A DNA stretch of 49,764 bases, taken from contig JAENWD010000289.1 in NCBI GenBank assembly GCA_016650245.1, positions 1-49,764 on the forward strand, in the 5' to 3' direction. Below are positions 4,701 to 48,132 of this stretch, piece after piece. Each line of letters begins with the position of its first letter. Positions within the stretch are counted from its first letter, which is position 1. Source of the stretch: Vicinamibacteria bacterium (GTDB lineage Bacteria > Acidobacteriota > Vicinamibacteria > Vicinamibacterales > JAENWD01). Under the pieces are notes generated by a model. The model was given only the letters and a program-made list of their open reading frames with translations. It did not search any database and had not been told where the DNA came from. The translations under genes were made by a program, and so were the position numbers.

Positions 4701-4721
4701 GGACTTCGGACTTCGGATGGA
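4701..4721. repeat. Heptamer tandem array (GGACTTC GGACTTC GGATGGA), family B
   Basis: Read directly. It begins 2 nt after the TGA stop (4697-4699) of the receptor gene. Confidence 0.8.
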
Positions 4722-4750
4722 GGGGCAGGCCTTCGGGCCCGCCCCCTTTT
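4722..4750 (+). terminator. Rho-independent terminator-like stem-loop
   Basis: GGGGCAGGCC-TTCG-GGCCCGCCCC (9 of 10 bp pair) followed by TTTT at 4747-4750. It lies between the convergent genes ending at 4699 (+) and 4752 (-). Confidence 0.65.
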
Positions 4751-4751
4751 G

Positions 4752-5807
4752 TCATACCGGGTCCGGCGTCTCCGCCACGGGACGAAGGTAGGCGTCAAGC
4801 AGCGCCGCCCCGATCGCCACCACGACGGGTCCAAACACCAGGCCGATCAAACCGAAGGCCGATATCCCTCCGAGCAGCGCCACGAACGTCACCAGTCCGT
4901 TCATCGACGAGCGGCCGCTCAATAGCAGTGGCCGCAGGATGTTGTCGGCCATGCCGACCAGCCCGCCTCCGATCCCGATCAGCACCAGCCCGCGCGTGAG
5001 GTCGCCGGTCAGCAGGAACCACAGCGCCACCGGCCCCCAGACCAGTGACGAGCCGACGATCGGCACCAGCGACATGAACGCCATCACGGTGCCCCACACG
5101 GCCGGGGCACGCACGCCGACGATCCAGAATCCCAGGCCGCCCAGAAAGCCCTGCACGGCGGCCACGGCGAGTCCCGCGATGACGCTGGCAAACACGAGGT
5201 CCTCGATCTGCTTGACGACCCGGTTGCGCTGCTGATCGTGGAACGGCAGAAAACCCTTGAGCACCCCGACGATGGCCGGTGCGTCGCGCAGGAAGAAGAA
5301 CAGCGCGAATAGCGCCAACGCCAGGTCGAGCACGAGCACGGCCAGTCCGCCCAGCAGGCGCCCCGACCCGCTGGCCGCCAGCGAACCGAGGCGCTGTGCC
5401 AGCGAGCCGACGGTTTCTGAGAGTCGCTCGGGGGCCAGGAAGGGCACGTGCATCTGCACCCAGCTCCACAAGGCCACCATTCTCTCGGATGGGGGCGACG
5501 ACATCGCACCTTGCAGTGCCGAGACGGCCTGCGCCCCCTCGCGCACCAGCGCGTCCACCAGCAGCCACACCGGCAGCACCAGCAGCAGAATTACGATGAG
5601 CACACACACACCGGCAGCGCGCGAGCGGCCGACGCGCGATGCCAGCTTGAGAAAGATTGGCTGGACGCTGACCGCCAGGACCCCGGCCCACCCGAGTGGC
5701 ACCAGGAACGGCTCCACCACCAGGAAGACCAGATACCCAATCAAGATGACGGCGGCGTAGAAGAGTAGTGGGGCGAGGCGATCGCGGTCGGACTCGGGGC
5801 GGCGCAT
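4752..5807 (-). CDS. AI-2E family (UPF0118/PerM-like) transporter
   Basis: 351-aa polytopic membrane protein. Its C-terminal region ADNILRPLLLSGRSSMNGLVTFVALLGGISAFGLIGLVFGPVVVAIG resembles the conserved AI-2E/PerM core. Confidence 0.7.
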   Translation of the reverse strand: MRRPESDRDRLAPLLFYAAVILIGYLVFLVVEPFLVPLGWAGVLAVSVQPIFLKLASRVGRSRAAGVCVLIVILLLVLPVWLLVDALVREGAQAVSALQGAMSSPPSERMVALWSWVQMHVPFLAPERLSETVGSLAQRLGSLAASGSGRLLGGLAVLVLDLALALFALFFFLRDAPAIVGVLKGFLPFHDQQRNRVVKQIEDLVFASVIAGLAVAAVQGFLGGLGFWIVGVRAPAVWGTVMAFMSLVPIVGSSLVWGPVALWFLLTGDLTRGLVLIGIGGGLVGMADNILRPLLLSGRSSMNGLVTFVALLGGISAFGLIGLVFGPVVVAIGAALLDAYLRPVAETPDPV

Positions 5808-5981
5808 GTGAGGGAGAGTAACCGAAAGGCCCGACTATCTGCCCCCTGATGTGGTTTCTGAAGCGAAAGCCATGACAACCGTGTAACGTACTGGCGGCCG
5901 GCTGCCCGCGACTCTGGTAAGATTCGAGGGTTTGTCCCGCCTTCGCCAGGGCTACGGCGGGCAGGCTCTGAAAGGACCCTT

Positions 5982-6602
5982 GTGGCACGGTTTCGCCTGA
6001 TCCCCCGTGAAGAGAAGTTCTACGCCGATTTCCTCACGCTGGCCGACCAGATTGTCGCCGCGGCCGCGGCGCTCGACCGCATGCTCGCCACTGAGATCCC
6101 CGACTGGGAGGTGGCCCTGCAGATCCACGACATCGAGAATGACTGTGACGGAATCACGCACGCGGTCATTCAGCGCCTCAACCGCACGTTCGTGACCCCG
6201 ATCGACCGCGAAGACATCCATCAATTGGCGCGGTCGCTCGACGACGTGATTGACGCCATCGACGCCGCCGCCACGGTGATCCGGCGCTACCGCGTGATGC
6301 CGGTCCGTTACGGCGCTCGCGAGCTGGCGACGATCATCGTCAAGTCGACGCACAAGGTCCGTATGGCCGTCGACGCGCTCGAGCGCAAGCACGGCGTCCA
6401 TGAGCACGCCGTCGAGGTGAATCGCCTCGAGAACGAAGCCGACCGCATGCACGACGAAGCGCTGCGCCGGCTGTTCGAGGAAGAGCACGACCCGATTACC
6501 GTCATCAAGTGGAAGGAAGTGCTCGATTTCCTCGAAGAGGCGACCGATCGGTGCGAGGACGTGGCCGACGTCCTTGAAGGCGTCGTCGTCAAGCACGGCT
6601 AG
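5982..6602 (+). CDS. DUF47 / PhoU-like phosphate-transport regulator (TIGR00153-type)
   Basis: 206 aa with a GTG start preceded by AAAGGA. The N-terminus RFRLIPREEKFYADFLTLADQI and the helical repeats with E/D-x-x-x-D motifs (ENDCDGITHAV, ENEADRMHDEA) fit this family. It sits immediately upstream of a PiT transporter, the classic DUF47-pit pairing. Confidence 0.75.
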   Translation: MARFRLIPREEKFYADFLTLADQIVAAAAALDRMLATEIPDWEVALQIHDIENDCDGITHAVIQRLNRTFVTPIDREDIHQLARSLDDVIDAIDAAATVIRRYRVMPVRYGARELATIIVKSTHKVRMAVDALERKHGVHEHAVEVNRLENEADRMHDEALRRLFEEEHDPITVIKWKEVLDFLEEATDRCEDVADVLEGVVVKHG

Positions 6603-6616
6603 CAGGTCGCCCTTCG

Positions 6617-7606
6617 ATGGAATTTGCTGCCGTCGCCTTCCTCATCCTGGTCGCGCTGACCTTCGACTACATCAACGGCTTTCACGACGCCGCCAACTCG
6701 ATTGCCACCGTCGTCTCGACCAGAGTGCTGTCGCCTGGCAAGGCGGTGATCTGGGCGGCCTTCTTCAACTTCGCGGCCGCCTTTGGTTTCGGGACCGCCG
6801 TGGCCAAGACGGTGGGCTCGGGCATGATCGACATCCGCGAAGTCACCTTCCTGGTGATCTTCGCCGGCCTGTTTGCCGCGATCGTGTGGGATCTGATCAC
6901 CTGGTACTACGGGCTGCCCACCAGCTCGTCGCACGCGCTCATCGGCGGCTACGCCGGTGGCGCGGTGGCCAAGGCCGGCGTTGGGGCAATCATCGTGTCG
7001 GGCTGGACCAAGACCCTCATCTTCATCGTGTTGGCGCCGACGATTGGCCTGGTGCTCGGCTTTGGGCTCATGGTCGCGATCTTCTGGCTGTTCCGCGGCT
7101 TCGCGCCGTCGAAAGTGGACCGCTGGTTCCGGCGTCTCCAGCTGGTGTCGGCTGCGGCGTATAGCCTGGGTCACGGCGCCAACGACGCGCAGAAGACGAT
7201 GGGCATCATCGCCGGGGTGCTGCTGGCCGGCGGCTACCTGACGGTCTTCGAGATCCCCTTCTGGGTTGTGCTTGCGGCGCACGGTGCGATCGCGCTGGGC
7301 ACGCTGACCGGCGGCTGGCGCATCATTCACACGATGGGCTCGAAGATCACGCGGCTGCAGCCGGTGGGCGGCTTTGCCGCCGAGACCGCCGGCGCCGTGT
7401 CGCTGTTCCTTGCCACGAGCCTCGGCGTTCCGGTCAGCACCACCCACACCATCACCGGCGCCATCGTCGGGGTCGGCGCGACCAGGCGCCTGTCGGCCGT
7501 TCGCTGGGGCATCGCCGGCAGGATCGTGTGGGCGTGGATTCTGACGATTCCCGCCTCCTTCTTCATCGCCGCGGTCACGTATTGGACGCTGTCTCACGTT
7601 CTCTAG
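6617..7606 (+). CDS. pit: Inorganic phosphate transporter, PiT (PHO4) family
   Basis: 329-aa membrane protein carrying the PiT signature twice (FDYINGFHDAANSIATVVSTRVL and AAYSLGHGANDAQKTMGII). Confidence 0.9.
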   Translation: MEFAAVAFLILVALTFDYINGFHDAANSIATVVSTRVLSPGKAVIWAAFFNFAAAFGFGTAVAKTVGSGMIDIREVTFLVIFAGLFAAIVWDLITWYYGLPTSSSHALIGGYAGGAVAKAGVGAIIVSGWTKTLIFIVLAPTIGLVLGFGLMVAIFWLFRGFAPSKVDRWFRRLQLVSAAAYSLGHGANDAQKTMGIIAGVLLAGGYLTVFEIPFWVVLAAHGAIALGTLTGGWRIIHTMGSKITRLQPVGGFAAETAGAVSLFLATSLGVPVSTTHTITGAIVGVGATRRLSAVRWGIAGRIVWAWILTIPASFFIAAVTYWTLSHVL

Positions 7607-7610
7607 AACC

Positions 7611-7757
7611 GGTTCGGTCTGGTTGGGCCGGGTTGGGTCTGGTTCGGCCAGGTTGATCTCGGTTGGCCCGGGTTCCACGCCCTGGCTGCCGGGCAACGGG
7701 TTCAACCAGGCTCAACCGACATCAACCCGACCTGACCTGACCGAACCCGATCAACCC
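7611..7757. repeat. Inverted pair of about 10-nt tandem arrays (GGTTNGGNCN x7 at 7611-7680; complementary CAACCNGANN units at 7713-7757), family C
   Basis: Read directly. The left array is in exact 10-nt register (ggttcggtct ggttgggccg ggttgggtct ggttcggcca ggttgatctc ggttggcccg ggttccacgc). The reverse complement of the right array (gggttgatcgggttcggtcagg...) is the same family. The pair fills the pit/phoR convergent spacer, and the phoR stop (7751-7753) lies inside the last unit. Confidence 0.85.
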
Positions 7758-9514: not shown

Positions 9515-9516
9515 GA

Positions 9517-14501: not shown

Positions 14502-15823
14502 GCGTCGGCAGGCACGTCACGCCGGAGGAGAAACCACAACGCGACCACCGACAGCAGCACGCCGTTGATCGCGATGGCGGCAGGGGCGCCGATGCGGTCG
14601 ATGACCAGGCCGGTCACCAGACTGCCAAGCGGCATCCCGCCGCGGAACGCCATCATGTAGATGCTCATCACGCGGCCCCGCATCTGGTTGGGCGCGGTGA
14701 GCTGCACCAGCGACGTGAACAGGGAGAACACCACCATCAACGCCGCGCCGGCCACGGCCAGCAGCGCGTAGCTGATCCAGAGCGCGCGCGTGTAGGCAAA
14801 CGCGACCGTCAGCGCTCCAAACAGCACCTGCCCCGAGAGCGCCGTGACGCCCATGCGGCTGAAGCGTCCCATCCAGGCCACCGCCAGCGCGCCGGCCACC
14901 GCGCCGACGCCCGACCATGCCATCATCTGGCTGTACTGGCCGACGCCTCCGTGAAAGACGCTGCGCGCAAATACCGGAAGGAAGGTCAGCAGCGGCACGC
15001 CGAGAAACGTCGAGGCCAGCGCGAGTACGGTGAGCGTGCGAATCGCCGGCTCGTCACGCACGTACACCAGTCCGGTTCGCAGCTCGTCGAGCATGCGTCG
15101 CTGGCCCACCGGCGCGACGTGCGGCGTGTTCAGCGACAGCAGCGCCGCGATCACGACGAGAAACGACAGGCCGTTGACCGTGAAGCACGACGCGCTTCCC
15201 AGCGAGTGCAGCGTCACCCCGGCAAGCAGCGGTCCGATCACGCGCGCGATGTTGAACTGGATCGAGTTGAGCGCGACGGCGTTGGGCAGGTGGTCCTTGT
15301 GGACCAGCGACGGAATCAGCGACTGATACGCCGGGCCGCCAAAGGCCTGCGCGCACCCGGAGAGAAACGACAGCGCAAGCACGTGCCAGATCTGCACCCA
15401 GCCGCCGAAGACCAGGACCGCCAGCGCGAAAGCCGACGACATCTGCACGACCTGCGAGGCCAGCAGCAACACGCGGCGGTCGCGCCGATCGGCGACCACG
15501 CCGCCGATCAGCGTGAACAGCAGAATCGGCAGTTCGCCCAGAAACGCGTCGAGTGCGAGATAGCTGGCGGAGTTGGTCAACTCGAGGACCAGCCAGCTCT
15601 GCGCAACCTTCTGCATCCAGGTGCCGATACTCGACGTGCAGGCGCCCATCCACAGCACCCGGAAGTCGCGGTAGCCGAGCGCTGCGGCCAGCCGCTGCAC
15701 GATCGGCCCGCCAATGTTGGGGGTGACGGGGAGAGCAGGACCTGAGGCCGGCGCGGAATCCACGAGGAGCGATCTTATAAGAATTGCAGATTGCAGATTG
15801 CAGATTGACGATTGAGATGTCAC
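14498..15823 (-). CDS. MFS transporter (EntS/MFS_3-like)
   Basis: About 12 predicted TM helices with an N-terminal YRDFRVLWMGACTSSIGTWMQ motif. The 15823 (GTG) start reads through the heptamer array and leaves only 8 nt to the divergent gene. An internal GTG at 15700 (VQRLAAALGYRDF...) is a plausible true start. Confidence 0.75.
   Translation of the reverse strand: MTSQSSICNLQSAILIRSLLVDSAPASGPALPVTPNIGGPIVQRLAAALGYRDFRVLWMGACTSSIGTWMQKVAQSWLVLELTNSASYLALDAFLGELPILLFTLIGGVVADRRDRRVLLLASQVVQMSSAFALAVLVFGGWVQIWHVLALSFLSGCAQAFGGPAYQSLIPSLVHKDHLPNAVALNSIQFNIARVIGPLLAGVTLHSLGSASCFTVNGLSFLVVIAALLSLNTPHVAPVGQRRMLDELRTGLVYVRDEPAIRTLTVLALASTFLGVPLLTFLPVFARSVFHGGVGQYSQMMAWSGVGAVAGALAVAWMGRFSRMGVTALSGQVLFGALTVAFAYTRALWISYALLAVAGAALMVVFSLFTSLVQLTAPNQMRGRVMSIYMMAFRGGMPLGSLVTGLVIDRIGAPAAIAINGVLLSVVALWFLLRRDVPADA
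15783..15817. repeat. Heptamer tandem array (ATTGCAG x3, ATTGACG, ATTGAGA), family A in reverse orientation
   Basis: Read directly. It lies in the divergent region between the MFS gene and the heparinase-like gene (ATG 15832). Confidence 0.85.
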
Positions 15824-20345: not shown

Positions 20346-20373
20346 CTACGGACTACGGGCTACGGACTTCAGG
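20346..20373. repeat. Heptamer tandem array (CTACGGA CTACGGG CTACGGA CTTCAGG), family B
   Basis: Read directly. The recQ stop codon (20369-20371) lies inside the last unit. Confidence 0.8.
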
Positions 20374-24302: not shown

Positions 24303-25555
24303 TCACGCCGGAAGGCGCTTCGGCAGCAACGCCACGGCCACGGCGCCCACGGCCGCCAGCCCGATGAGCACCGAAAACCCGCCCGCGTAGCTGCCGGTTG
24401 CATCGCGGATGCCGGCCACCAGCATCGGCGCGGTCGCCTCGGCGATGCCGTCGGCTGTGAGCACGATGCCCATCAGTCGGCCCAGCATCTTCACCCCGAA
24501 CAGCTCGGCAGCCATCAGCGGGATGATCATGTAGTCGCCGCCCAGCCCGATGCCAAACAGCAGCGCAAAGGCGTAGCGCGCCGCCGGCAGGTCGGCCAGA
24601 AACAGCAGCGGGATCGTGCACGCCACGATGGAGTAGATGAGCAGCATCACGTACTTCTTCGCAAACCGATCGGCGAGATAGCCCATCGCGATGCGGCCGA
24701 TCAGGCTGCCCACCAGCACCAGCGACGCGATCTGCGCCACCTCGCCCTGCGCCAGCTTCACGTCCAGGCTCAAATACAGCTTGAGGTTCTGCATCGTCCC
24801 CCCGACGGCGCCGATGGAGCACATCGAGCCGACCATCAGCAGGTAGAACGCGGGGGACTTCAGTGCTGACGCAAGAGACGGCAGCGCGCCAGCGGAAATT
24901 GACGATTGACGATTGACGATTGACGACTGGGCGGTTGCAGGGTGCAGGTTGTCGGTTAACGGTTGTTGGTTCGCTCCGCGTGCGGCGACATCCTCGGGCT
25001 TCTCCCTGACGAACCACGCCATGGGAAACGCGATGACGACCATCAGCACGCCCAGTATCTGCAACGCGGCCTGCCAGCCCAAGCGCTGGGTCAGCGCGTG
25101 GGCCAGCAGCGGGACGATGGCGCCGCCGACACCGATGCCGAGATAGGCAAAGCCCATCGCCTTGCCGCGATTTGTGTCGAACCATCGCGACAGCAGCACC
25201 TGATTGGGCAGCGGGCCGCCGCAGACGTAGCCCAGGGCGTTGAACACGTAGAACAGATAGAAGAACGCCAGCGTCGAGACCGTGCCGAGTCCCACCAGCG
25301 CGCCGCCGGCCATCACGATGCCGGCAAGCATGAGCCGCCGCGGCCCGAACCGATCGATGAACCAGCCGGCCAGAAACCCGAACAGCGGGCCAATCAGCAG
25401 CTTGCTGTACGCGTTCCCCGAGGTGACCTGCTGGCGCGTCCACCCCAGATCCCGGACGAAGAAGTCGTAGAAGAACGGCAGGCCGTAGAGCGCGAACCCC
25501 ACGATCGAGAACAACGACAGAAACGCGGTAGCGGCGACGTGTGTCTGTGGGCGGC

Positions 25556-32190: not shown

Positions 32191-32208
32191 GCAGGCCTTC
32201 AGGCCTGC
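32191..32208. other. Intercistronic GC-rich stem-loop GCAGGCC-TTCA-GGCCTGC
   Basis: A perfect 7-bp stem starting 2 nt after the fucosidase TAG (32187-32189). Confidence 0.6.
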
Positions 32209-32222: not shown

Positions 32223-33089
32223 ATGGCACTCTCACGACGTGATGCGCTCAGGACCGCCGGGGCCGTGGCCGCCGGCGCGGTGTTTGCCGGCTCGGAGACC
32301 TCTGCACAGGAGAAGGCCGTCAAGCTGGGCAGGTTGAAGCAGTCGGTGTGCCGCTGGTGCTATCAGCGCATCCCGCTCGAGGACTTCCTCAAGTCGGTCG
32401 CCGATCTCGGCCTGCCGGCCGTGGACTTGCTGCAGCCCGAGGAGTTCGCGATCGCCGCCAAGTATGGGCTCACGGTGTCCACTGGTTACCCGGGCAAAGG
32501 CGGCGGTACCATCCCGGACGGCCTGAACAACCCGGCGCTGCACGACCAGATCTACGAGACCTTCAAGACGGGGATCCCGTTCGCCAAGGCGGCGAAGGTG
32601 CCGAACCTGATCACCTTCTTCGGCAACCGCAAGGGCATGCCCGACGACCAGGCGATCGCCAATTGCGCGGCGGTGCTCAACCGCATCAAGCCCATCGCCG
32701 AAGAGCACGGTGTCACCGTGGTCGTCGAGCTGCTCAACAGCAAGGTGAACCACAAGGACTACCAGGGCGACAAGACGCCGTTTGGCGTCGAAGTGATGAC
32801 GCGGGTGGCCTCGCCCAACGTCAAGCTGCTGTACGACATCTACCACATGCAGATCATGGAGGGCGACATCATCCGCACGATCAAGGACAACAAGGACTGG
32901 ATCGCGCACTACCACACGGGCGGCGTCCCCGGGCGTAACGAGCTCGATCCGACGCAGGAACTGCAGTGGCCCGCCATCGTCAAGGCGATTCACGAGACCG
33001 GCTACACCGGCTACTTCGCGCACGAGTTCATCCCGGTGCGCGAACCGATGGCATCACTGCGCGAAGCCGTGGTGCTCTGCGACGTGTAA
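32223..33089 (+). CDS. Sugar phosphate isomerase/epimerase (xylose isomerase-like TIM barrel, hydroxypyruvate isomerase-like) with Tat signal
   Basis: It has the Tat motif MALSRRDALRTAGAVAAGAV. TIM-barrel family features are present (VVVELLNSKVNHKDY, KLLYDIYHMQIMEGD, YTGYFAHEF). Confidence 0.75.
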   Translation: MALSRRDALRTAGAVAAGAVFAGSETSAQEKAVKLGRLKQSVCRWCYQRIPLEDFLKSVADLGLPAVDLLQPEEFAIAAKYGLTVSTGYPGKGGGTIPDGLNNPALHDQIYETFKTGIPFAKAAKVPNLITFFGNRKGMPDDQAIANCAAVLNRIKPIAEEHGVTVVVELLNSKVNHKDYQGDKTPFGVEVMTRVASPNVKLLYDIYHMQIMEGDIIRTIKDNKDWIAHYHTGGVPGRNELDPTQELQWPAIVKAIHETGYTGYFAHEFIPVREPMASLREAVVLCDV

Positions 33090-33114
33090 TCTGCAATCGT
33101 CAATCTGCAATGAC
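33087..33114. repeat. Heptamer array TAATCTG CAATCGT CAATCTG CAATGAC, family A
   Basis: Read directly. The first unit holds the upstream TAA stop (33087-33089) and the last unit holds the downstream ATG (33110-33112). Confidence 0.85.
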
Positions 33115-35437: not shown

Positions 35438-35460
35438 GTGAGTCCCGCCCCATCCGACCC

Positions 35461-35530
35461 AATCTGCGCAATCTGCGTAATCTGCGGGTGATTACTCCGC
35501 GTAATCCTCTATAATCTGCGTAATTTCCCC
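35461..35530. repeat. 9-nt array AATCTGCGC AATCTGCGT AATCTGCGG plus degenerate (G)TAATC units; contains TATAAT at 35510-35515
   Basis: Read directly, upstream of the VWA gene (ATG 35546, GAGGT at 35536-35540). Confidence 0.8.
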
Positions 35531-35545: not shown

Positions 35546-37648
35546 ATGCGTCAGCACGTCGCGTTGCTCTGCGTCATTGCGCTCACCACCGCGCTGAGCG
35601 CTCAGGACTACAGGGTCGAGGTACGGCTGGTTGAATCCGAGGTCCGCGTGACCGACCGCGCGGGCCGCCCCATCACCGATCTGACCCGTGCCGACTTCAC
35701 ACTGACCGAAAACGGCGTCCCCCACGACGTGGCCACCGTGCAGTTCGTGCCACAGGCCGAGAACGACCGCGGAACGTGGGAAGCGCCCGACGGCATGCCG
35801 GGCGAGCCGGTGGCGGCGCCCATCGGAAGCCCCACCTGGGTTTACGTCGCAGCGGAAGTCGGTACCACCGACACCAAGCGGACCATAGAGGCCCTCCGCG
35901 CCTTCGTGCTCGGCAATCTCCGGCCAGGGTTCCACGTGTCGATTGGCAACCGCCCCTTCACCGACGCCCGCACCGATCTCATCGCGACGATCAACAAACT
36001 CGAGCGCGGGCCGCTGGGCGGCAACGGCCTGTCAGGGTTGGTGGATCTGTCGCGTCCGATGGCCGACGACGCCGCGATCGAGCGGGCGAATGCGGCCAAC
36101 ATCCAGCGCCAGAACGACGGTGTCGCGCCGCTGATGGGATTCATGGTCCGTCCGCAGCAGGCGCCCACCAACGCCGCGCTGGCTGCGCCGGTGACCGAGG
36201 GCCTGGTCGACCGGCAGTTGCCCATTTACGGCGAGGTGGCCCTGAACCAGTACTTCGGCCTGGTCGAACGCCTGGCGCCGCTGCCGGGCAAGAAGGCCAT
36301 CGTGTTGATGCGTCCGGGGCTGCGTCTGGAACAGGACAACGCCGGGCTGTTCCGCGATCTGGCCAGTTTTGCGGTGCGCCGGCGTGTCAGTTTCTACACC
36401 GTCGACTCGCGCGGCCTCAACCCGCAGACGCCTGTGGACGAGCGCGGCATAGCTCCCACGATCGACGGCCGCCGCCGCCGCGCCGAGCCGGACCTGGTCG
36501 GCCAGTCCGAGTTGCGCGCGCTGGCGCGTGAAGGGCTGGAGAACTTGGCGCGTGAGACCGGGGGCTACGCGATCATCGGCAGCAACCGCCTGGCCGACGT
36601 CTTCGACCGCGTGGTCCGCGACGCATCCGGGTATTACGTCGTGAGTTACTACCCGGTCGACTTGCGGTCGGCCGGCCGCTTCCGCGCGCTGAAGTTCAAC
36701 GTCACCAGGTTGGGCGCGCGCGTGCAGGCCGCCACCCGGGGTTATTACGAGCCGCGCACGACGTCGATGTTCGCGAAAGACGACCGCGGGCTGGCGCTGC
36801 GCCAGGCGATGCAGCGCGCCGAGGTTCCCGTCGATCTGCCCGTCGCCGCGTCTGTCGGGATGTTCGCCAGCGACGAGGGGTTCCCCGTGCTCGTGCTCAG
36901 TGCGGGCGTGCCCGCCAGCCAGTTGCAGCCCTCCGACTTGAAGGCGCCCCAACTGGTGGCGACCGCGATCCTGCGCGTGACCGACGCCACAAACGGGCGC
37001 CTGCCGCTCTATTTCGAGCGGCGCCTCGAGGCGCCGCTCGACGTCGCGCGCTGGGGCCAGGTGCGCGGGGATCGCACCGCCTTTTTGTCGATGAGCGATC
37101 TGCTGCCGCTGCTGCCGGGCGAGTACGACTGGCGCATCGTGTTTCGCGATGAGCGGTCGGGCCGGATGGGCGGCGTTGGCGGGCGCGTGCTGCTCAAGGA
37201 CTTCCGCGGCCCGTCCACGTCGAGCTCGCTGTTGCTGACGCGCCAGGTGGCGCGACGCGACGGCAATGCCGTTGACACCGATCGGCAGCCACTCGATGCC
37301 GGCGCCGTGCGCTTCGTGCCCCAGCCCTCCATGGTCTTCGCGCAGGGCGAGACCGTGCACCTGCTCTACATCGTGTACAACGCGACGCCCGAGGACCTCG
37401 ACGCCGTCAAGCAGGGCATGCATCTCGCCCTCTTGCGCAATGGCCGGGCCGTGGGCGATGTGCAGGCCGCCGGTGAGCCCGTGGTGGATGCCAAGCGCGG
37501 CCAGATTCAGTTCACCGGCGCCATCCGTACTGGCTCGCTCGAGCCGGGGACCTACACGGTCGTCGGCATGCTGCCAAACTTCGAGACCCGATCGCCCAAG
37601 CAGGTAGAGCAGCGCTTCCTGTTGATCGCGCCGACCGCCGGTTCGTAA
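35546..37648 (+). CDS. VWA-domain protein of the 'VWFA-related acidobacterial domain' type with long C-terminal extension
   Basis: A signal peptide is followed by YRVEVRLVESEVRVTDRAGRPITDLTRADFTLTENGVPHDVATVQFV, the hallmark N-terminus of this family. VWA-like core motifs follow (KKAIVLMRPG, SFYTVDSRG). Confidence 0.7.
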   Translation: MRQHVALLCVIALTTALSAQDYRVEVRLVESEVRVTDRAGRPITDLTRADFTLTENGVPHDVATVQFVPQAENDRGTWEAPDGMPGEPVAAPIGSPTWVYVAAEVGTTDTKRTIEALRAFVLGNLRPGFHVSIGNRPFTDARTDLIATINKLERGPLGGNGLSGLVDLSRPMADDAAIERANAANIQRQNDGVAPLMGFMVRPQQAPTNAALAAPVTEGLVDRQLPIYGEVALNQYFGLVERLAPLPGKKAIVLMRPGLRLEQDNAGLFRDLASFAVRRRVSFYTVDSRGLNPQTPVDERGIAPTIDGRRRRAEPDLVGQSELRALAREGLENLARETGGYAIIGSNRLADVFDRVVRDASGYYVVSYYPVDLRSAGRFRALKFNVTRLGARVQAATRGYYEPRTTSMFAKDDRGLALRQAMQRAEVPVDLPVAASVGMFASDEGFPVLVLSAGVPASQLQPSDLKAPQLVATAILRVTDATNGRLPLYFERRLEAPLDVARWGQVRGDRTAFLSMSDLLPLLPGEYDWRIVFRDERSGRMGGVGGRVLLKDFRGPSTSSSLLLTRQVARRDGNAVDTDRQPLDAGAVRFVPQPSMVFAQGETVHLLYIVYNATPEDLDAVKQGMHLALLRNGRAVGDVQAAGEPVVDAKRGQIQFTGAIRTGSLEPGTYTVVGMLPNFETRSPKQVEQRFLLIAPTAGS

Positions 37649-37674
37649 TCGTCAATCTGCAATTCTGCAATATA
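37646..37674. repeat. Heptamer array TAATCGT CAATCTG CAATTCTG CAATATA, family A
   Basis: Read directly. The first unit holds the TAA stop of the VWA gene. Confidence 0.8.
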
Positions 37675-37703
37675 CCCAGTGGTCTTTCCACTCGGAGTTG
37701 TCC

Positions 37704-39023
37704 ATGAGTCAGTCATCGAGCAGACGCGACTTCATCAGGCAGGTCGGCGCAGGCGCGGCCGTCCTTGGCGCCGGCATCGTCGCCAGTCAGCCCGCCGACG
37801 CACGTCCTGATACCTTTGCCACTGGCCGCGTGCGCGGCGCCAACGACCGGCTCAATGTCGGCTTTGTCGGCTGCGGTGGACGCATGAGAAGCCACATCCG
37901 CCATCTCGTCGCGCGCAACAAGGAGAAGGGCGACGTGATGGCCGTGGCCGTCAACGACATCTGGGACAAACGCAAGAAGGCCGCGCAGGAGGCCACCGGC
38001 GTCGACGCCACGTCGGTCCATCACGACTACCGCGAGCTCTGCGGGCGGTCCGACATCGACGTCGTGGTGATCTCGTCGCCCGATCATTGGCACCACGCGC
38101 ACGCGCTGGCTGCGCTCAAGGCCGGCAAGGACGTGTACCTCGAAAAGCCGATGACCTACACGATCGACGAGGCCAGGGAGGTCACCGAGGCCGTCAAGGC
38201 AAGCGGTCGTGTGTTGCAGGTGGGCAGCCAGTACGCGTCGATGGACCACTTCTGGAAGGCCCGGCGGGCCATTGCCGACGGTCTGATCGGCCAGGTGATG
38301 TGGGCGTCGGGCGGCTTTGGCCGCAACCGCAACAAGCGCGGCGAGTGGAACTACCCCATCGACGCGGACGCGACCGAGCAGACACTGGACTGGAAGGCGT
38401 TTCTCGGCAGCGCGCCCAAGCGGCCGTTTGCGCCCGAGCGCTACTTCCGCTGGCGCAAGTACTGGGACTACTCCGGCGGTATTGCGACCGACCTGTTCTA
38501 TCACACGGTCTCACCGCTCCTGGTGGCCATCGGCCCGGAGTTCCCGCACCGCGTCACAGCCGGCGGCGGCATCTACGCCCAGCACGACCGCGAGGTGCCC
38601 GACACCTTCTTCATGAACGTCGACTACCCGAAGTGGACGATGCAGCTGGCCTGTTCGGTAGGCAGCGGCGTTGGCGCGCCGCTGGTGATCCACGGCTCGG
38701 AGGGCACGATCTTTGTGGCGCGCGACAGCGAGTCGCTCGACAACACCGAGATCGAAGTGGTGCCCGATCGTGAGTACAAGGACGACTTCGTCAAGAAGAC
38801 CGGTAGTGAGACCGTCAAGATCGCGGTCCAGCCGTTTGCCCCAGGCACGCATCCGCACATGGACAACTTCCTCGACTGCGTGCGCAGCCGGAAGGCACCC
38901 AACCTTGACGCCGAGACCGGCTATCGGGCCATGGCGGCCATCGGCATGGGCGTCAGCGCGTATCGCCGCGGCGAGGTGCTGTTCTTCGACGCGAAACGCG
39001 AACGCGTCACTGATACGTTGTAA
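37704..39023 (+). CDS. Gfo/Idh/MocA-family oxidoreductase with Tat signal
   Basis: It has the Tat motif SSSRRDFIRQVGAGAAVLGAG. It also has a Rossmann segment (LNVGFVGCGGRM) and the family motif DVYLEKPM. The ATG at 37704 follows GGAG. Confidence 0.8.
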   Translation: MSQSSSRRDFIRQVGAGAAVLGAGIVASQPADARPDTFATGRVRGANDRLNVGFVGCGGRMRSHIRHLVARNKEKGDVMAVAVNDIWDKRKKAAQEATGVDATSVHHDYRELCGRSDIDVVVISSPDHWHHAHALAALKAGKDVYLEKPMTYTIDEAREVTEAVKASGRVLQVGSQYASMDHFWKARRAIADGLIGQVMWASGGFGRNRNKRGEWNYPIDADATEQTLDWKAFLGSAPKRPFAPERYFRWRKYWDYSGGIATDLFYHTVSPLLVAIGPEFPHRVTAGGGIYAQHDREVPDTFFMNVDYPKWTMQLACSVGSGVGAPLVIHGSEGTIFVARDSESLDNTEIEVVPDREYKDDFVKKTGSETVKIAVQPFAPGTHPHMDNFLDCVRSRKAPNLDAETGYRAMAAIGMGVSAYRRGEVLFFDAKRERVTDTL

Positions 39024-39073
39024 GTGCTCTCGGGTGCTCTCGGGTGCTCTCAGGTGCTCTCAGGTGCTAAGGG
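39024..39073. repeat. 10-nt tandem array GTGCTCTCGG x2, GTGCTCTCAG x2, GTGCTAAGGG, family E
   Basis: Read directly. It starts immediately after the TAA at 39021-39023 and ends 4 nt before the ATG at 39078. Confidence 0.9.
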
Positions 39074-39077: not shown

Positions 39078-40274
39078 ATGACCAGACAGATTCTGTTGAC
39101 GTGTGGGACAGTGGCGGCGTTGACGGCGGCGCTTGTGGGGCAGCAGCACCAGGTCAAGCCCGACGCGCTGCCCAAGCCGTTTGCGACGCCTGATGTGCGG
39201 AACCCGCCGACCGTGATCGCGCAGCCCGAGGGCGCCTCGCTGAATGTGCCGAAGGGCTTCTCGGCGAAGGTGTTTGCGGAGGGCGGTTTCAAGCGGATGC
39301 GCTGGGTCGCGGTGGCCCCGTCCGGCGACGTGTTTGCTACCGACTCGGACCTCAACACGCTCACGGTCCTGCGCGACACCAACGGCGACGGCACCGCCGA
39401 CCAGCGGCACGTGTTTGCCGAAGGGCTCGCGCGTCCGTTCGGCATTGCCTTTGGCGCGGGGCACATCTACGTCGCCAACGCCGGGAGCATCGTGCGGTGG
39501 CCGTACACGAACGGCCAGCTCAAGGCCGAAGGGCCCGGCAGCAAGATCGTCGAGATGCCGGCCGAGCCGGGGCATTGGACGCGCAACATCAGTTTCAGCC
39601 CAGACGGTGCGCGGCTCTACGTCACCCTCGGGTCCAGTTCCGATGCGGGCGCGCCCGATGCCGACCGCGCGCTGGTGTTCTCGGTCAAGCCCGACGGTTC
39701 GGATCGACGCGTCCTCGCCACGGGCTTGCGCAACCCAATCGGGCTCGGATTCGAGCCATCGACTCGCACGTTGTGGGCGGCCGTGCAGGAGCGCGACAAG
39801 CTGGGCGACGATCTCGTCCCGGACTACATCACCAGCCTGCGCGACGGCGGCTTCTACGGTTGGCCGTTTGCCTACGTCGGCCCCAACGAAGATCCGCGGC
39901 ATGCGGGCGAGCGGCCCGACCTGGTGAAGCAGACGCTGGTGCCCGATGTGCTGCTCGAAGCGCACTCGGCGGTCATGGGCCTGGTCTTCTACCAGGGGAA
40001 GAACTTCCCGTCGAGCTACCGCGGCAGCGCCTTTGCGACGCTGCGCGGCTCCTCGAACCGGAGCCTCCGCACCGGCTACAAGGTGATCCACATTCCCTTT
40101 GTGAAGGGCAGGCCGTCGGGTGGCTACGAGGACTTCGCCACCGGGTGGATGCTCGGCGAGGACAAGAAGGAAGTGTGGGGCCGTCCGGTGGGCATCGCCG
40201 TTGCCGGCGACGGCGCGCTGCTGGTGGTGGACGACGCCAACCAGCGCATCTGGCGCATCGCACACGGTGCGTAG
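39078..40274 (+). CDS. PQQ-dependent sugar dehydrogenase (sorbosone/glucose dehydrogenase-like beta-propeller)
   Basis: Motifs: GLRNPIGLGFEPSTRTLWAAVQERDKLGDDLVPDYITSLRDGGFYGWPFAY and GRPVGIAVAGDGALLVVDD. It has an N-terminal signal peptide. Confidence 0.7.
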   Translation: MTRQILLTCGTVAALTAALVGQQHQVKPDALPKPFATPDVRNPPTVIAQPEGASLNVPKGFSAKVFAEGGFKRMRWVAVAPSGDVFATDSDLNTLTVLRDTNGDGTADQRHVFAEGLARPFGIAFGAGHIYVANAGSIVRWPYTNGQLKAEGPGSKIVEMPAEPGHWTRNISFSPDGARLYVTLGSSSDAGAPDADRALVFSVKPDGSDRRVLATGLRNPIGLGFEPSTRTLWAAVQERDKLGDDLVPDYITSLRDGGFYGWPFAYVGPNEDPRHAGERPDLVKQTLVPDVLLEAHSAVMGLVFYQGKNFPSSYRGSAFATLRGSSNRSLRTGYKVIHIPFVKGRPSGGYEDFATGWMLGEDKKEVWGRPVGIAVAGDGALLVVDDANQRIWRIAHGA

Positions 40275-40294
40275 GGCGGAACTTCAGTTCCGCC
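40275..40294. other. Stem-loop GGCGGAAC-TTCA-GTTCCGCC (copy 1 of a dispersed element)
   Basis: A perfect 8-bp stem directly after the TAG at 40272-40274. A near-identical copy lies at 44197-44216. Confidence 0.7.
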
Positions 40295-41234: not shown

Positions 41235-41247
41235 GGGCGCACGAACG

Positions 41248-41375
41248 AAGTGCAAAATGCAAAATGCGAAATGCCAAGTGGCGAAACAGGGATGCATCCC
41301 AACGTTTCGCATGTTGCACGCTGCACCCCGTACTTTTCACTTCGCACTTCGCACTTTGCATTTTGCACTTCGCAT
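41248..41375. repeat. Inverted pair of heptamer arrays (AAGTGCA AAATGCA AAATGCG AAATGCC AAGTGGC at 41248-41282; TTTTCAC TTCGCAC TTCGCAC TTTGCAT TTTGCAC TTCGCAT at 41334-41375), family D
   Basis: Read directly. GTGCAAAATGCAAA (41250-41263) is exactly complementary to TTTGCATTTTGCAC (41355-41368). The palindrome GGGATGCATCCC at 41289-41300 lies in the loop. The pair fills a convergent spacer. Confidence 0.85.
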
Positions 41376-42019: not shown

Positions 42020-42054
42020 CAATCGTCAACCGTCAATCTGCAATCGTCAATTGT
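42020..42054. repeat. Heptamer array CAATCGT CAACCGT CAATCTG CAATCGT CAATTGT, family A
   Basis: Read directly. It lies between two minus-strand genes, and the stop of the upstream gene (42054-42056) starts at the last nt of the last unit. Confidence 0.85.
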
Positions 42055-43016
42055 CACGCCCAATATGCCTTCCCGGCCGGGGCGCTGATGACGACGTTCT
42101 TCAGCACGCCGATCGCCTTCTTCAGCCCTTCGTCGCCAGACATCAGCGAGTCCTCGTGCTCGATGCTGATGACGTGATCGTAGCCGACCATGCGCAGGTT
42201 GCTCACGATCTCGCGCCAGACTGATTCGCTGTTGCCGTAGCCCACCGTGCGGAAGACCCACGAGCGGTTCAGCTCGTCGGTGTACTTCTTCACGTCGAGC
42301 ACGCCGTTCTTCGCGGTGTTGGCCGGGTCGATCTTGCAGTCCTTGGCGTGGACGTGGAAGATGCGGTCGCCCAGCGTCCGGATGGCCGTGGGCACGTCCA
42401 CCTGCTGCCAGAACATGTGGCTGGGGTCGAAGTTGCAGCCGATGGTGCCCTTGGCCACATCAGCCAGCCTCAGCATGGTCTCCGGGTTGTAGGCGACGAA
42501 GTTCGGGTGCATCTCGATGGCAACCCGGACGCCGTTGCGCCGAGCGAACTTCGCCGTCTCCTTCCAGTAGGGGAGCACCCGCTCCTTCCACTGCCACTCG
42601 AGCATCTGGGGGAACTCGGGAGGCCACGACGAGGTGATCCAGTTTGGCTGGGTTGCCTTCGGGTCGCCGCCCGGGCAGCCCGAGAAGGTGATGACCTGCT
42701 GGACATCGAGCTTCGAGGCCAGCTCCACGGTCTGCCGGAACACCGTGTCGTGCGCTCTGGCGACCTTCTTGTCCGGGTGAATCGGGTTGCCGTGACACGA
42801 CAGGGCGCTGATCATGAGCCCGCGGCTCGAGATAGCGGCCCTGAACGCCTTGAGCTTGCTCTCGCTCTTGAGCAGCTCCGCCGGCTTGCAGTGCCCGTCG
42901 CCTGGGTAGGCGCCGGTGCCGATCTCGACGGCTTCAAGTCCAAGCTCCTTCACGTAGTCGAGCGTTTCCTCGAAGGGCTTGTTGCCGAACAGGACGGTGA
43001 AGACTCCGATTTTCAT
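42054..43016 (-). CDS. Sugar phosphate isomerase/epimerase (xylose isomerase-like TIM barrel)
   Basis: 320 aa: MKIGVFTVLFGNKPFEETLDYVKELGLEAVEIG..., VAIEMHPNF, HVHAKD. Confidence 0.8.
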   Translation of the reverse strand: MKIGVFTVLFGNKPFEETLDYVKELGLEAVEIGTGAYPGDGHCKPAELLKSESKLKAFRAAISSRGLMISALSCHGNPIHPDKKVARAHDTVFRQTVELASKLDVQQVITFSGCPGGDPKATQPNWITSSWPPEFPQMLEWQWKERVLPYWKETAKFARRNGVRVAIEMHPNFVAYNPETMLRLADVAKGTIGCNFDPSHMFWQQVDVPTAIRTLGDRIFHVHAKDCKIDPANTAKNGVLDVKKYTDELNRSWVFRTVGYGNSESVWREIVSNLRMVGYDHVISIEHEDSLMSGDEGLKKAIGVLKNVVISAPAGKAYWA

Positions 43017-43028: not shown

Positions 43029-43046
43029 GCGGGCCTGAAGGCCCGC
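43029..43046. other. Intercistronic stem-loop GCGGGCC-TGAA-GGCCCGC
   Basis: A perfect 7-bp stem between the Gfo stop (43048) and the TIM-barrel start (43016). Confidence 0.6.
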
Positions 43047-44172: not shown

Positions 44173-44196
44173 CGGTCTGACTCGTCTCCGACGTAG

Positions 44197-44216
44197 GCCG
44201 GAACTTCAGTTCCGGC
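44197..44216. other. Stem-loop GCCGGAAC-TTCA-GTTCCGGC (copy 2 of the dispersed element)
   Basis: A perfect 8-bp stem between the cytochrome c stop (44238) and the Gfo start (44172). The flanks GTAGG...GCTG are shared with copy 1. Confidence 0.7.
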
Positions 44217-44237
44217 GCTGTGAAAGGGAGGGGGTGA

Positions 44238-44618
44238 CTAGTTCGTGCCGGTCTTCGGCGCGGCCTTGGCTTTGGCGGCCGGCTTGGCCGCCAGCGTCTT
44301 GTCGAAGTTGCGCACGAACTTCACCAGGGCCAGGACCTCCTGGTCCGACAGCCGATCCTTGAACGCCATCATCGCCGTGGCCGGTACGCCGTCGGTGATG
44401 ACCTTGGCCAGTTGCTTGATGGTCGTGCCGTGAATCCACTCGCCGTCGGCGAAGTTCATCTGCTTGATGGCCGCGTTGCCGTCGGGCATGTGGCACATCT
44501 GGCAGTTCTGGACGTAGAGCTCCTGTGCAGGGCGGTTGGTCGTCGGCCGCGCCGCCTGCGCCGAGGCCGCCGAGGCGAAGGCGAGACATCCGACAAGGAG
44601 AAAGGCAATCCGTCGCAC
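44238..44618 (-). CDS. Class I c-type cytochrome (monohaem)
   Basis: GTG start at 44618, a signal peptide (RRIAFLLVGCLAFASAASAQA), the haem motif CQMCH, and a distal Met region (VPATAMMAF). The 255-aa track ORF extends across the promoter region and is not supported. Confidence 0.75.
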   Translation of the reverse strand: MRRIAFLLVGCLAFASAASAQAARPTTNRPAQELYVQNCQMCHMPDGNAAIKQMNFADGEWIHGTTIKQLAKVITDGVPATAMMAFKDRLSDQEVLALVKFVRNFDKTLAAKPAAKAKAAPKTGTN

Positions 44619-44774
44619 GGTCGAAACGTCCTTGGAGATTAGTGATAAGGCCAGCGAACAGAACGACTTCGCTCGCACACGCTGCTGATCGAGCGTAACG
44701 GTGCTCCCTGAAGTTGTCAAGCCAGTGCGCCCCGAAACACAGTATATTTCGCCCGCGCGGAGGCGCCTTGCCTG

Positions 44775-46619
<1,845 letters not shown>

Positions 46620-46620
46620 A

Positions 46621-46655
46621 GACTGCGGACTTCGGACTACGGACTACGGAACTGA
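46621..46655. repeat. Heptamer array GACTGCG GACTTCG GACTACG GACTACG GAACTGA, family B
   Basis: Read directly. It fills the spacer between the TAG at 46617-46619 and the ATG at 46658. Confidence 0.85.
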
Positions 46656-46657
46656 CG

Positions 46658-46852
46658 ATGGACATTCGACTGCCACTCGGGATGCTGTTTTCAATCGTCG
46701 GCGCGCTGCTGGCGGGGTTTGGCGTGGCGACTGCGTCGAGCCAGATGTACCGCCAGCACTCGCTCGGGATCAACGTCAACATCTGGTCGGGCCTGGGCAT
46801 GCTGGCGTTCGGGTTGACGCTGCTGTGGCTGGCGAAACGCAAAACCGCGTGA
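46658..46852 (+). CDS. Small two-TM membrane protein downstream of the symporter
   Basis: 64 aa: MDIRLPLGMLFSIVGALLAGFGVATASS...INVNIWSGLGMLAFGLTLLWLAKRK. It has two hydrophobic helices and a basic C-terminus. Coding status rests on hydropathy and position only. Confidence 0.5.
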   Translation: MDIRLPLGMLFSIVGALLAGFGVATASSQMYRQHSLGINVNIWSGLGMLAFGLTLLWLAKRKTA

Positions 46853-46998
46853 TCACGTACGCCAACCACAGAGACACGGAGGACACAGAGGACGCACGGA
46901 GCATTTCTTGGGGTGCCCCAAGAATACCTCTGTGCCGTCTCCGTGTTCTCCGAGCCTCTGTGGTTGGCGTACGTAGACATGGTTGGCGTACGTGATCA
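46850..46998. repeat. Large imperfect palindrome built from CACAGAG/CACGGAG-type units, spanning a convergent spacer
   Basis: 46855-46974 is a 120-nt palindrome. It has a 19-bp perfect basal stem (ACGTACGCCAACCACAGAG / CTCTGTGGTTGGCGTACGT), about 47 of 60 positions pair overall, and the centre is CTTGGGGTGCCCCAAG at 46907-46922. A second copy of the right end, GGTTGGCGTACGTGATC (46981-46997), is complementary to 46851-46867. Both flanking stop codons lie in TGATCA (46850-46855 and 46993-46998). Confidence 0.85.
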
Positions 46999-48006
46999 CT
47001 TCGCCTGCAACAGCCCGTCGATGTAAAACTTCATGAACGCGTTGCGCTTCGGTTCGAGGCACACCGAGACGGGTTTGCCGCCGCTTGAATCGACGCGTGT
47101 GAAGCCCTTGTCGTCCACGCGGATCGGCATCGACGTGCAGCGGCCGAAGAACGCGCCGGGCTGCAACGCTTCGGCGACGGCCATCTGGTCGTGCAAGGTC
47201 ATCTGTTGCGTCGGGTCGCCGATCCACAACCGGTACAGCGCTTCCAGGGCCCGCGTCACCGCAGCGGGGTGCGTCTCGAGTCGCGCACGTTCGTCGGCTC
47301 TGAGCTTCACGTAGGTGGTCGAATCAAGCGGCACGATCGTCAGCGGCGCGGTCGAGTACACCAGCTGCGCGTCGGTTGTCGCCCGGACGACGTTCCACTC
47401 GGCCACCGGCGTCGGCGACCACACGTTACCGCCGATGGACCCGCTCATCAGCACGACTCGCTTGGCCAGCGTACCCAGATTCGGTTCCTTCCGAAGCGCG
47501 TCCGCGATGTTCTGCAAGGGGCCCACGGCCAGCAGCGTGATCTCGCCCGGATGCCGACGCAGCGTCTCGACGATGAAGTCGGCGGCCGATTGCGCGATGG
47601 GACGCACGGCCGTGAAGTCCTCGGCCCAGGTGAACTGGTAGTCCACCGAGTCGGGCGGCGGGGTGGCACGGCCGGACGCGACGGGCACCTCGCCGCGGCC
47701 GCCGGCGTGGAGTAGCTTGGCGGCGACCTTCGCCCGCGCCGCTGTGTTGCCGTCGCTGATCGTGACACCCACCAGGTCCACCTGCGGCGACACCATCAGC
47801 AGCCCCAGCGCCCACGCATCGTCGATGTCGGTGCCGATGTCGGTGTCGAGCAGCACCTTCATGCGTGGCTGCGACGGGATCGACCAGGCGACCAGCTGAT
47901 TGCCTGCGGCGTTGAGAGGTGGCACGGGTGCCTGCGCCGCCACCGGAGCCGCAAGGCCGATCACGAGCAGGAGGGAGAAGGAGCGTCGCTGGCGCCGTGA
48001 GCACAT
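46996..48006 (-). CDS. Inosine-uridine-preferring nucleoside hydrolase family protein, secreted
   Basis: It carries the IUNH aspartate cluster (VLLDTDIGTDIDDAWAL). The signal peptide begins at ATG 48006 (MCSRRQRRSFSLLLVIGLAAPVAAQ). The track start 48114 (TTG) reads through repeat arrays. Confidence 0.75.
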   Translation of the reverse strand: MCSRRQRRSFSLLLVIGLAAPVAAQAPVPPLNAAGNQLVAWSIPSQPRMKVLLDTDIGTDIDDAWALGLLMVSPQVDLVGVTISDGNTAARAKVAAKLLHAGGRGEVPVASGRATPPPDSVDYQFTWAEDFTAVRPIAQSAADFIVETLRRHPGEITLLAVGPLQNIADALRKEPNLGTLAKRVVLMSGSIGGNVWSPTPVAEWNVVRATTDAQLVYSTAPLTIVPLDSTTYVKLRADERARLETHPAAVTRALEALYRLWIGDPTQQMTLHDQMAVAEALQPGAFFGRCTSMPIRVDDKGFTRVDSSGGKPVSVCLEPKRNAFMKFYIDGLLQAK

Positions 48007-48030
48007 GACGCGGGATGATACAGGGTTCGG

Positions 48031-48132
48031 GCTACAGGCTGCAGGCCCGGCGTCTGGAGTCCGAAGCCTGAAGCCCGCGTGTGATCGGCTGGGGAGCCTA
48101 ATCTCCATCGGCAATCTGCAATCGGCAATTCT
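48031..48132. repeat. Cluster of mini heptamer arrays: GCTACAG GCTGCAG (48031-48044); TCTGGAG TCCGAAG CCTGAAG (48053-48073, family B inverted); TAATCTC..CAATCTG CAATCGG CAATTCT (48099-48132, family A)
   Basis: Read directly. It lies in the 5' region of the nucleoside hydrolase gene. Confidence 0.7.

Follow-up and report, generated by a model that had tools for sequence, protein, structure and literature searches.

Tandem arrays of heptamer units that recur at many unlinked loci have been described for Xanthomonas (GGGAATC) and for Nostoc (GGGGAYT) by Rehm et al. 2015 (PMC4692102). In these genomes 89-93% of the arrays are intergenic, with a mean distance of 28 nt from the upstream open reading frame (ORF) and of 160 nt to the downstream one. 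Positions 1-4 and 6 of the unit are conserved, four units are preferred, arrays that follow a stop codon are G-rich on the sense strand, and junctions shared by two species carry arrays of varying length and sequence. In Xanthomonas campestris pv. campestris convergent inverted pairs account for 70 of 186 repeat sites, and the function of these arrays is not settled (PMC4692102). Long simple sequence repeats (LSSRs) with units of 5-11 nt were surveyed by Mrazek, Guo and Shah 2007; according to the summaries of this survey in PMC4679880 and PMC4692102, heptamers are the commonest class, LSSRs are typical of large high-GC genomes of non-pathogens, and polymerase slippage was suggested as their origin. 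TAACTGA repeats near start codons were found in marine Beggiatoaceae, cyanobacteria and Bacteroidetes, and heptamer-binding Csp or S1 proteins were proposed for them (MacGregor 2015, PMC4679880). Here we analyse the 49,764 nt contig JAENWD010000289.1 ("the window") from a genome of Vicinamibacteria (Acidobacteriota), in which tandem arrays of 7 to 10 nt units, assigned to families A to F by their unit, lie mostly between genes.

We put the probability at roughly three in four that these arrays are dispersed short-unit, mostly 7-nt microsatellites of the heptamer-dominated LSSR type, to which we also count the Xanthomonas GGGAATC arrays and the short tandemly repeated repetitive (STRR) heptamers that Mazel reportedly described in 1990 for Calothrix and Nostoc. 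They belong to a described repeat type and are not a new class; what is new is the occurrence in Acidobacteriota with a CAATC core. The initial annotation of this DNA had named no described class that matches, and this view did not hold, since heptamer-dominated LSSRs and the GGGAATC, GGGGAYT and STRR families are organised alike.

Arrays in the window were detected with Tandem Repeats Finder (TRF), and 60 order-3 Markov simulations gave the chance level. Twelve period-7 arrays were found, whereas the simulations gave 0.9 on average and 4 at most, and a stricter detector yielded 7 versus 0.13 expected. For period 9 the numbers were 4 versus 0.75, and for period 10 they were 4 versus 0.43. The arrays listed by the initial annotation are real, as TRF recovered nearly all of them at or near their coordinates. 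Nine of the 12 heptamer arrays lie in non-coding DNA, which makes up about 8% of the window, and the proposed intergenic enrichment is thus present here. The other three are a family A array in a loop of RecQ, another one in a loop of a major facilitator (MFS) transporter, and a GCGCCCG array at 16910, which was not counted as a member of the class as it reflects GC-rich coding periodicity. The statement that the arrays occupy intergenic spacers stands for most of them, with four being coding (one in RecQ, two in the MFS transporter, and probably one in a fucosidase signal peptide). An array had been claimed for 14 of 24 spacers; on a curated gene map, with spacers of at least 15 nt, it is about 12 of about 26.

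The closest genomes are metagenome-assembled genomes (MAGs) of Vicinamibacteria. Four of them (L001-L004) show near-complete synteny with 25.5-48 kb of the window, with about 75-95% protein identity for most genes, and L005-L007 are syntenic with about 10-28 kb. Within this range of identity the same family was found at orthologous junctions. Between a xylose-isomerase-like gene and the Nramp gene all five syntenic genomes carry family A, and its orientation flips: CAATC is read in the window, in L004 and in the second array of L001, GATTG in L002, L003 and the first array of L001. An apparent strand switch along the window (GATTG on the plus strand before 25 kb, CAATC on the plus strand after 33 kb) was not supported by the syntenic loci. 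Between the gene for a 700-aa protein and a GFO oxidoreductase gene, family A is present in the window, L001 (12145) and L004 (12117), and L002 and L003 have a GACCYGATCR 10-mer instead. At 42020, between a G2DH3-like gene and a second xylose-isomerase-like gene, the window and L004 carry family A, and L001, L002 and L003 carry inverted pairs of other families. The family A array between the heparinase-like and MFS_3 genes is kept in L005 (4.6 units) and L006 (14 units), and the family B array between RecQ and FeoA also occurs in L007 (9344-9377); together with the array in the MFS loop, these persist in relatives with differing copy numbers. The family B array at 46621-46655 is absent in L002 and L003. 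At the junction at 39024 the window has GTGCTCTCRG units, L004 has 9.6 copies of the 8-mer CGGGTTCA, and L001 has nothing. In both the window and L004 the array runs with its last unit into the conserved flank CAGGGTGCGATGACC, and therefore some families (E at 39024, the 8-mer in L004) look locally born.

That the arrays adjoin stop codons was confirmed, and several include the stop codon itself (TAATCTG..., TGATTGCG..., TAAACGGAA...). At tandem junctions (33 arrays) the median distance was 9 nt to the upstream stop versus 62 nt to the next start. On their downstream side arrays end at conserved -10-like boxes (TATAAT; TATACY) or at a start codon. On the sense strand G exceeded C in 18 of the 21 informative arrays located not more than 12 nt after a stop, and arrays farther from the stop had mostly more C than G. 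After removal by hand of obvious orthologous duplicates the polarity count was still about 15 to 3.

At convergent junctions the arrays form inverted pairs, 16 of which were found, and the G-rich arm comes first in 14 of the 15 informative ones. Of all inverted repeats in the window, the three strongest are such pairs, reaching from stop to stop. For these, folding is predicted with a dG of -90 kcal/mol (z -6.3) at 7606-7752, of -62.5 kcal/mol (z -7.6) at 41246-41375 and of -93 kcal/mol (z -10.8) at 46849-46999. The PHO4 and histidine-kinase genes are convergent, and the pair at 7606-7752 takes up the whole spacer between them; the GTGATCAC termini of the 46849-46999 palindrome hold the stop codons of both convergent genes. 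Classical hairpin-plus-U terminators were not enriched in a scan of 30-49.7 kb (9 versus 10.6 expected).

Short GC-rich palindromes of 18-20 nt centred on CTTCAG/CTGAAG were also observed directly after stops (32191-32208, 40275-40294, 43029-43046, 44197-44216). The same type, with a TTCG loop, forms the GC hairpin at 4722-4745 directly after the family B array at 4700-4721. Palindromes of this type also occur in L001 and L004. Array-free spacers of the window often have a CTTCAG palindrome, and relatives may hold an array at that junction, so palindromes and tandem arrays seem interchangeable.

Eight arrays of the window have a CAATC core in common (family A). The three largest families of dispersed direct repeats in the window (D1, D2, D5) all are family A, with unrelated flanks. 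We counted 27 CAATC chains in 8 loci; in the window, CAATC pairs have a spacer of 2 nt in 12 cases and of 4 nt in one, and no other spacer. Mismatches between adjacent units amounted to 14.5% in the core versus 39% in the 2-nt linker (Fisher p ~3e-9, inflated by non-independence); this was measured on TRF-defined arrays, since core-based detection would be circular. The core was found with linkers of 2, 3 and 4 nt (periods 7, 8 and 9). A metagenome scan for (CAATCNN)5 revealed about 12 bacterial contigs (53-68% GC) with several CAATC-core arrays each, often as GATTG...CAATC inverted pairs. As one of them (L096, 53% GC) is assigned to Pyrinomonadaceae by its protein relatives, the CAATC core is common to at least two classes of Acidobacteriota. 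Most exact matches of the scan were unrelated (CCCCAAT)n telomeres of ciliates at contig ends (GC about 0.25). These matches (among L008-L127, e.g., L034 824-907 and L062 296-328) lie on short contigs from rumen-type samples, presumably gene-sized chromosomes of ciliates. Unit families are common to unlinked loci far beyond chance, and the earlier argument that this requires something besides slippage of unique local sequence is supported.

As an alternative, CAATC-type arrays would be multi-site platforms for a conserved acidobacterial nucleic-acid-binding protein, kept by selection for binding. This protein may bind DNA in the manner of nucleoid-associated or insulator-like proteins, or it may bind single strands with a footprint of 6-7 nt, as a cold-shock-domain protein would. 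We regard this as a serious but clearly less probable alternative. It would fit the conserved core with its free linker of varying length, the persistence of family A at the same junctions across 75-95% protein identity, the core in a second class, and a strand polarity that depends on position; the Csp and S1 binders proposed for the TAACTGA repeats (PMC4679880) provide a precedent. However, relatives often have another family, a plain palindrome or nothing at a given junction, the same units occur in loops of proteins, for which a role in binding is difficult to imagine, a 7-bp spacing puts successive sites on different faces of the duplex, and no candidate protein was identified. Helically phased binding repeats (iterons, OmpR/PhoB boxes; 10-11 or 20-22 bp) were rejected, as only the arrays at 39024 and 7611 have units of 10 nt. 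The suggestion that 10-nt units match the helical repeat and place a protein on one face of the helix has to be given up: 2-3 arrays have period 10, and the dominant period is 7.

Alternatively, the arrays may act in RNA. They would either be intercistronic leaders, low in GC and unstructured, on which ribosomes can load in the absence of a Shine-Dalgarno sequence, or bind a post-transcriptional regulator, as proposed for the TAACTGA repeats of Beggiatoaceae. The array at 33087-33114 spans the distance from a stop to an ATG, has no Shine-Dalgarno sequence, and its CAATG start is in phase in three genomes. Single arrays fold weakly (z -0.5 to -2.3), family A and D arrays have 38-49% GC versus 67% GC for the genome, and the sense strand of arrays closer to starts is rich in C and poor in G. 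Most arrays abut stops and not starts, however, and several lie upstream of -10-like boxes and thus probably outside of the downstream transcript. With respect to transcription, family A arrays point either way (about 9 to 10, our own count), and arrays also occupy convergent junctions, where there is no downstream gene. We consider a role at the RNA level unlikely.

Some arrays lie inside genes. In the RecQ gene (20369-22201) the array at 22001-22042 encodes an insertion of 8 residues relative to the solved RecQ structures 4tmu and 1oyw, placed exactly between motif I and the next strand (…LPAL / SPLIALM). This loop has 9-54 residues with obvious heptapeptide repeats in RecQ homologues (71 scorable of 120 listed relatives). 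CAATCGN units are translated into QSSIVNR and GCACCCR units into APGTQHP, and at least two unit families occur in the relatives. The number of units at this site is two in L005 (GATCAATCGTCAATTGCG), 5-6 in the window and about 20 in L006. The homologues P0001 and P0003 are 99.8% identical, and their sole difference is an 11-residue indel in the array. This demonstrates that copy number changes on the strain timescale, always in frame in the recovered proteins. All recovered RecQ homologues are in frame, and the array-bearing genes are housekeeping or metabolic. The arrays at 24898-24974 are located in the central cytoplasmic loop of the MFS transporter, and the array is kept in L005, L006 and L007. 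The ATG at 30831 overlaps the TGA of the upstream gene, and the array at 30843-30905 reads (RVD/RVG)n before a hydrophobic signal-peptide core; most likely it is translated and forms the n-region of the signal peptide of the fucosidase. A CGGGTCGSG array occupies this site in L001, and L004 has a plain MGR n-region without array. In an unrelated metagenomic contig (L100, 745-6450; 60% GC) we observed an ORF for a 1901-aa UvrA-like protein with three in-frame CAATC arrays, which encode QQSTIINRQSSI, SNHQSSI and NNLQSPISNL.

The RecQ site also bears on a dedicated dispersal of the arrays, by a mobile element similar to repetitive extragenic palindromes (REP) with their associated tyrosine transposases (RAYT) or to miniature inverted-repeat transposable elements (MITE), by templated repeat synthesis at breaks, or by ectopic copying of arrays already present during repair. 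RecQ of L007 is 92% identical to that of the window, yet the whole family has been swapped (9.6 units of GCACCCR versus CAATCGK). Identical unit families at unlinked loci, and hairpins with CACAGAG arms (family F) at different junctions in the window and L004, would also agree with dispersal. On the other hand, the arrays lack conserved flanks, terminal repeats and target duplications, private families merge into local flanks, which points to local birth, and no transposase-like gene was found among the 30 window genes scanned. Family replacement is possible by differential growth and loss as well, because the RecQ loops of P0031 and P0016 are compound, with two families side by side. An origin from MITEs or insertion sequences was rejected, since the copies have only the repeat unit in common and their flanks are unrelated. 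We consider dedicated dispersal improbable. That the arrays are assembly artefacts is very improbable: L004 and L001 are long-read MAGs and L004 has frameshift-like gene breaks, but seven assemblies, produced independently by different projects and with different assemblers, have arrays at orthologous positions, and the arrays inside genes keep the reading frame.

Considering all these data, the arrays are best explained as heptamer-dominated microsatellites that arise and persist as follows. Replication slippage, or unequal exchange, would create the arrays and resize them. Selection would spare them only where a change in length is harmless, that is in the stretch from a stop to the next promoter or start, in surface loops and in n-regions of signal peptides, and within genes only in frame. 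In the 3′ spacer they have a fixed polarity, as the sense strand is the G-rich one immediately behind the stop. Convergent inverted pairs are predicted to fold into long stop-to-stop hairpins, which most likely serve as bidirectional terminators or stabilisers of 3′ ends, and small GC palindromes would take the same niche in array-free spacers. The shared families, foremost CAATC with a linker of 2-4 nt, may reflect a sequence-specific constraint common to Acidobacteriota, for example a host factor or a sequence-biased step of slippage or repair. It is conceivable, though not likely, that Acidobacteriota, at least Vicinamibacteria and Blastocatellia, share a conserved factor that recognises or writes CAATC with its linker, which would make the arrays phylum-wide cis-elements that mark gene 3′ ends.

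Several points weigh against this explanation. That a single 5-nt core recurs at eight loci within 50 kb, and in two classes of Acidobacteriota, is beyond plain slippage, and neither a factor nor a mutational bias was identified that accounts for it. The putative terminator function of the hairpins is deduced only from folding energy and position. Orthologous arrays and amplified units enter repeatedly into the statistics on polarity and on core versus linker, which makes the p-values optimistic, and gene starts in L001-L004 stem from our own codon-score caller.

Coordinates of the arrays are compiled in Table 1. Some entries differ from the initial annotation. At 48053-48073, listed as an inverted family B array, no array was detected. 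The array at 24933-24974 was missed by TRF; by eye it consists of six 7-nt GGTTGNN units, a CAACC variant of family A, on the sense strand. The inverted array at 7713-7757 was recovered only as the inverted arm of 7606-7661, and the tandem array at 46866-46962 is in fact part of a 150-nt stop-to-stop palindrome (46849-46999), whose arms contain degenerate 7-9 nt repeats.

Table 1. Short-unit arrays of the window, with strand, bounds given by TRF, repeat unit and genomic context.
Position (strand)	TRF bounds	Family	Unit	Context
4700-4721 (+)	4700-4717	B	CGGACTT x2.6	starts at the base after the stop of a TonB-type outer-membrane protein gene (1523-4699)
7606-7752 (inverted pair)	7611-7674 (10/20 nt)	C	GGTTSGNYCN 10-mers (7611-7680), CAACC arm (7697-7752)	between convergent genes
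15783-15817 (-)	15783-15818	A	CAATCTG x5 on the minus strand, 7 nt	divergent spacer, MFS_3 / heparinase-like genes
20346-20373 (+)	20346-20368	B	GGACTAC type	between RecQ stop (20369) and FeoA
22001-22042 (-)	22006-22040	A	CAATCGK x5-6, 7 nt	in frame in RecQ
24898-24974 (-)	24898-24926	A	CAATCGT x4 and, next to it, the CAACC variant x6; both 7 nt	in frame in MFS transporter
30843-30905 (+)	30842-30904 (9 nt x7)	C	CGGGTTGRT x7, 9 nt	in frame after ATG 30831
33087-33114 (+)	33088-33111	A	7 nt	stop codon (TAA in TAATCTG) to Nramp start codon (CAATG)
35461-35487 (+)	35460-35486 (9 nt)	A (9-nt variant)	CAATCTGCG x3	upstream of conserved TATAAT box
37646-37674 (+)	37656-37671 (8 nt, weak)	A		shares TAA stop of 700-aa gene; ends at conserved TATAC(C/T) box
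39024-39073 (+)	39024-39068 (10 nt x4.5)	E (private)	GTGCTCTCRG x4.5, 10 nt	begins at the base after a stop
41246-41375 (inverted pair)	41251-41274, 41332-41374	D	GTGCAAA / TTTGCAC	between convergent genes
42020-42056 (+)	42020-42056	A	7 nt	abuts/overlaps stop of minus-strand xylose-isomerase-like gene (42054-43016)
46621-46655 (+)	46621-46650	B	GGACTNC x4.3	between SSF symporter stop and ATG of ORF 46658-46852
46849-46999 (150-nt palindrome)		F	arms with CACAGAG/CACGGAG-type repeats	between convergent genes
48099-48132 (+)	48107-48129	A	CAATCKG x3-4, 7 nt	spacer upstream of nucleoside hydrolase gene

The window has a GC content of 65-70%, and its genes code for ordinary metabolic and housekeeping proteins, among them a TonB-type outer-membrane protein, PHO4, a histidine kinase, FeoAB, RecQ, MFS transporters, a GMC oxidoreductase, a fucosidase, Nramp and GFO/IDH/MocA oxidoreductases. 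A tRNA scan and Rfam at gathering threshold gave no matches over the window. Conserved -10-like boxes were seen in the five syntenic genomes at 35495-35520 (TATAAT) and 37672-37706 (TATACC/TATACT), as well as a conserved 5′-UTR hairpin before the ATG at 37704 that overlaps a Shine-Dalgarno sequence (GGAG). Judging from these elements, the genes of the apparent cluster each seem to have a promoter of their own. A promoter scan of 30-49.7 kb returned no promoters. Look-alikes of sigma54 or -35 elements in GATTGCA/TTGACG units, noted by eye, were dismissed: they are not correctly spaced from the conserved -10 boxes, and they are present in either orientation.

A small ORF (46658-46852, plus strand), missed by the gene caller used and kept in L002 and L003, is located between the symporter gene and the 150-nt palindrome; its product of about 64 aa is hydrophobic. 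The minus-strand ORF 44238-45005, also present in L002, overlaps the start of the symporter gene (44775-46619, plus strand) by about 230 nt; its upstream part is probably an antisense shadow, with the real start further downstream. The GSDH-like gene (39087-40274) is single in the window, and L001 (13544-15980) and L004 (13553-16027) have two tandem paralogues of about 53% identity, with a family A array after the second copy.

Our data extend the poorly understood phenomenon of heptamer repeats to Acidobacteriota, a dominant and little-studied soil phylum; a literature search yielded no paper in which heptamer repeats are connected with Acidobacteria. In-frame arrays, as seen in RecQ, the MFS transporter and the UvrA-like protein, indicate that the same process also makes length-variable protein loops. 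In practical terms, the arrays are ready-made variable-number tandem repeat (VNTR) markers for strain typing of uncultured Vicinamibacteria, and they are a source of miscalled gene starts.

Compared to other dispersed repeats, the arrays resemble REP sequences and bacterial interspersed mosaic elements (BIME) in lying in transcribed 3′ spacers and at convergent junctions, and in the hairpins formed by inverted array pairs and CTTCAG palindromes. They differ in that single arrays are direct repeats without a palindromic unit, and that there is no conserved unit of 20-40 nt. A scan of 30 window proteins revealed no RAYT-like gene, and a genome-wide RAYT search was not made. With the TAACTGA repeats they have in common that one heptamer occupies many intergenic sites, typically in 2-6 copies, often without a canonical ribosome-binding site, and that some arrays lie in ORFs. 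The TAACTGA repeats, however, are a single family found mainly just upstream of starts, whereas here several families with other units are found mainly at stops. As in the LSSRs surveyed in 2007, heptamers are the most abundant class, as far as the summaries of that survey tell; it predates the acidobacterial genomes of this class, and those summaries are silent on recurrence of unit families and on polarity.

The closest agreement is with Xanthomonas and Nostoc. In all cases tandem heptamers with conserved core positions and variable others occur at many unlinked loci, mostly in non-coding DNA (there about 90%) with an intragenic minority. The arrays lie nearer to the upstream ORF end, convergent inverted pairs are frequent, arrays that follow a stop are G-rich on the sense strand, relatives have arrays at the same junction, and the typical size is about 4-5 units. 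Differences are the phylum, the presence of several public families beside private ones, and the prominence of in-frame arrays in housekeeping proteins (RecQ, MFS, UvrA-like). Every organisational feature of the heptamer-dominated LSSR class that we tested was found, with the exception of the G-tracts. Units of families A, B, D, E and F have no GGG tract, and only family C (30843-30905, CGGGTTGRT) fits G3-N6; judged by their units, families A, B and D are unable to form the G-quadruplexes proposed for the Xanthomonas and Nostoc repeats. Since the dominant family lacks G-tracts and yet obeys the same rules of position, polarity and size, we argue that G-quadruplex formation is not a general explanation of this class. 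The units nevertheless resemble each other (GKCAATC and Xanthomonas GGGAATC; CGGACTN and Nostoc GGGGACT), and because of this likeness there could even be a cross-phylum mechanism, independent of G-quadruplexes, that generates or selects heptamers of the type G-rich-AAT/ACT-C.

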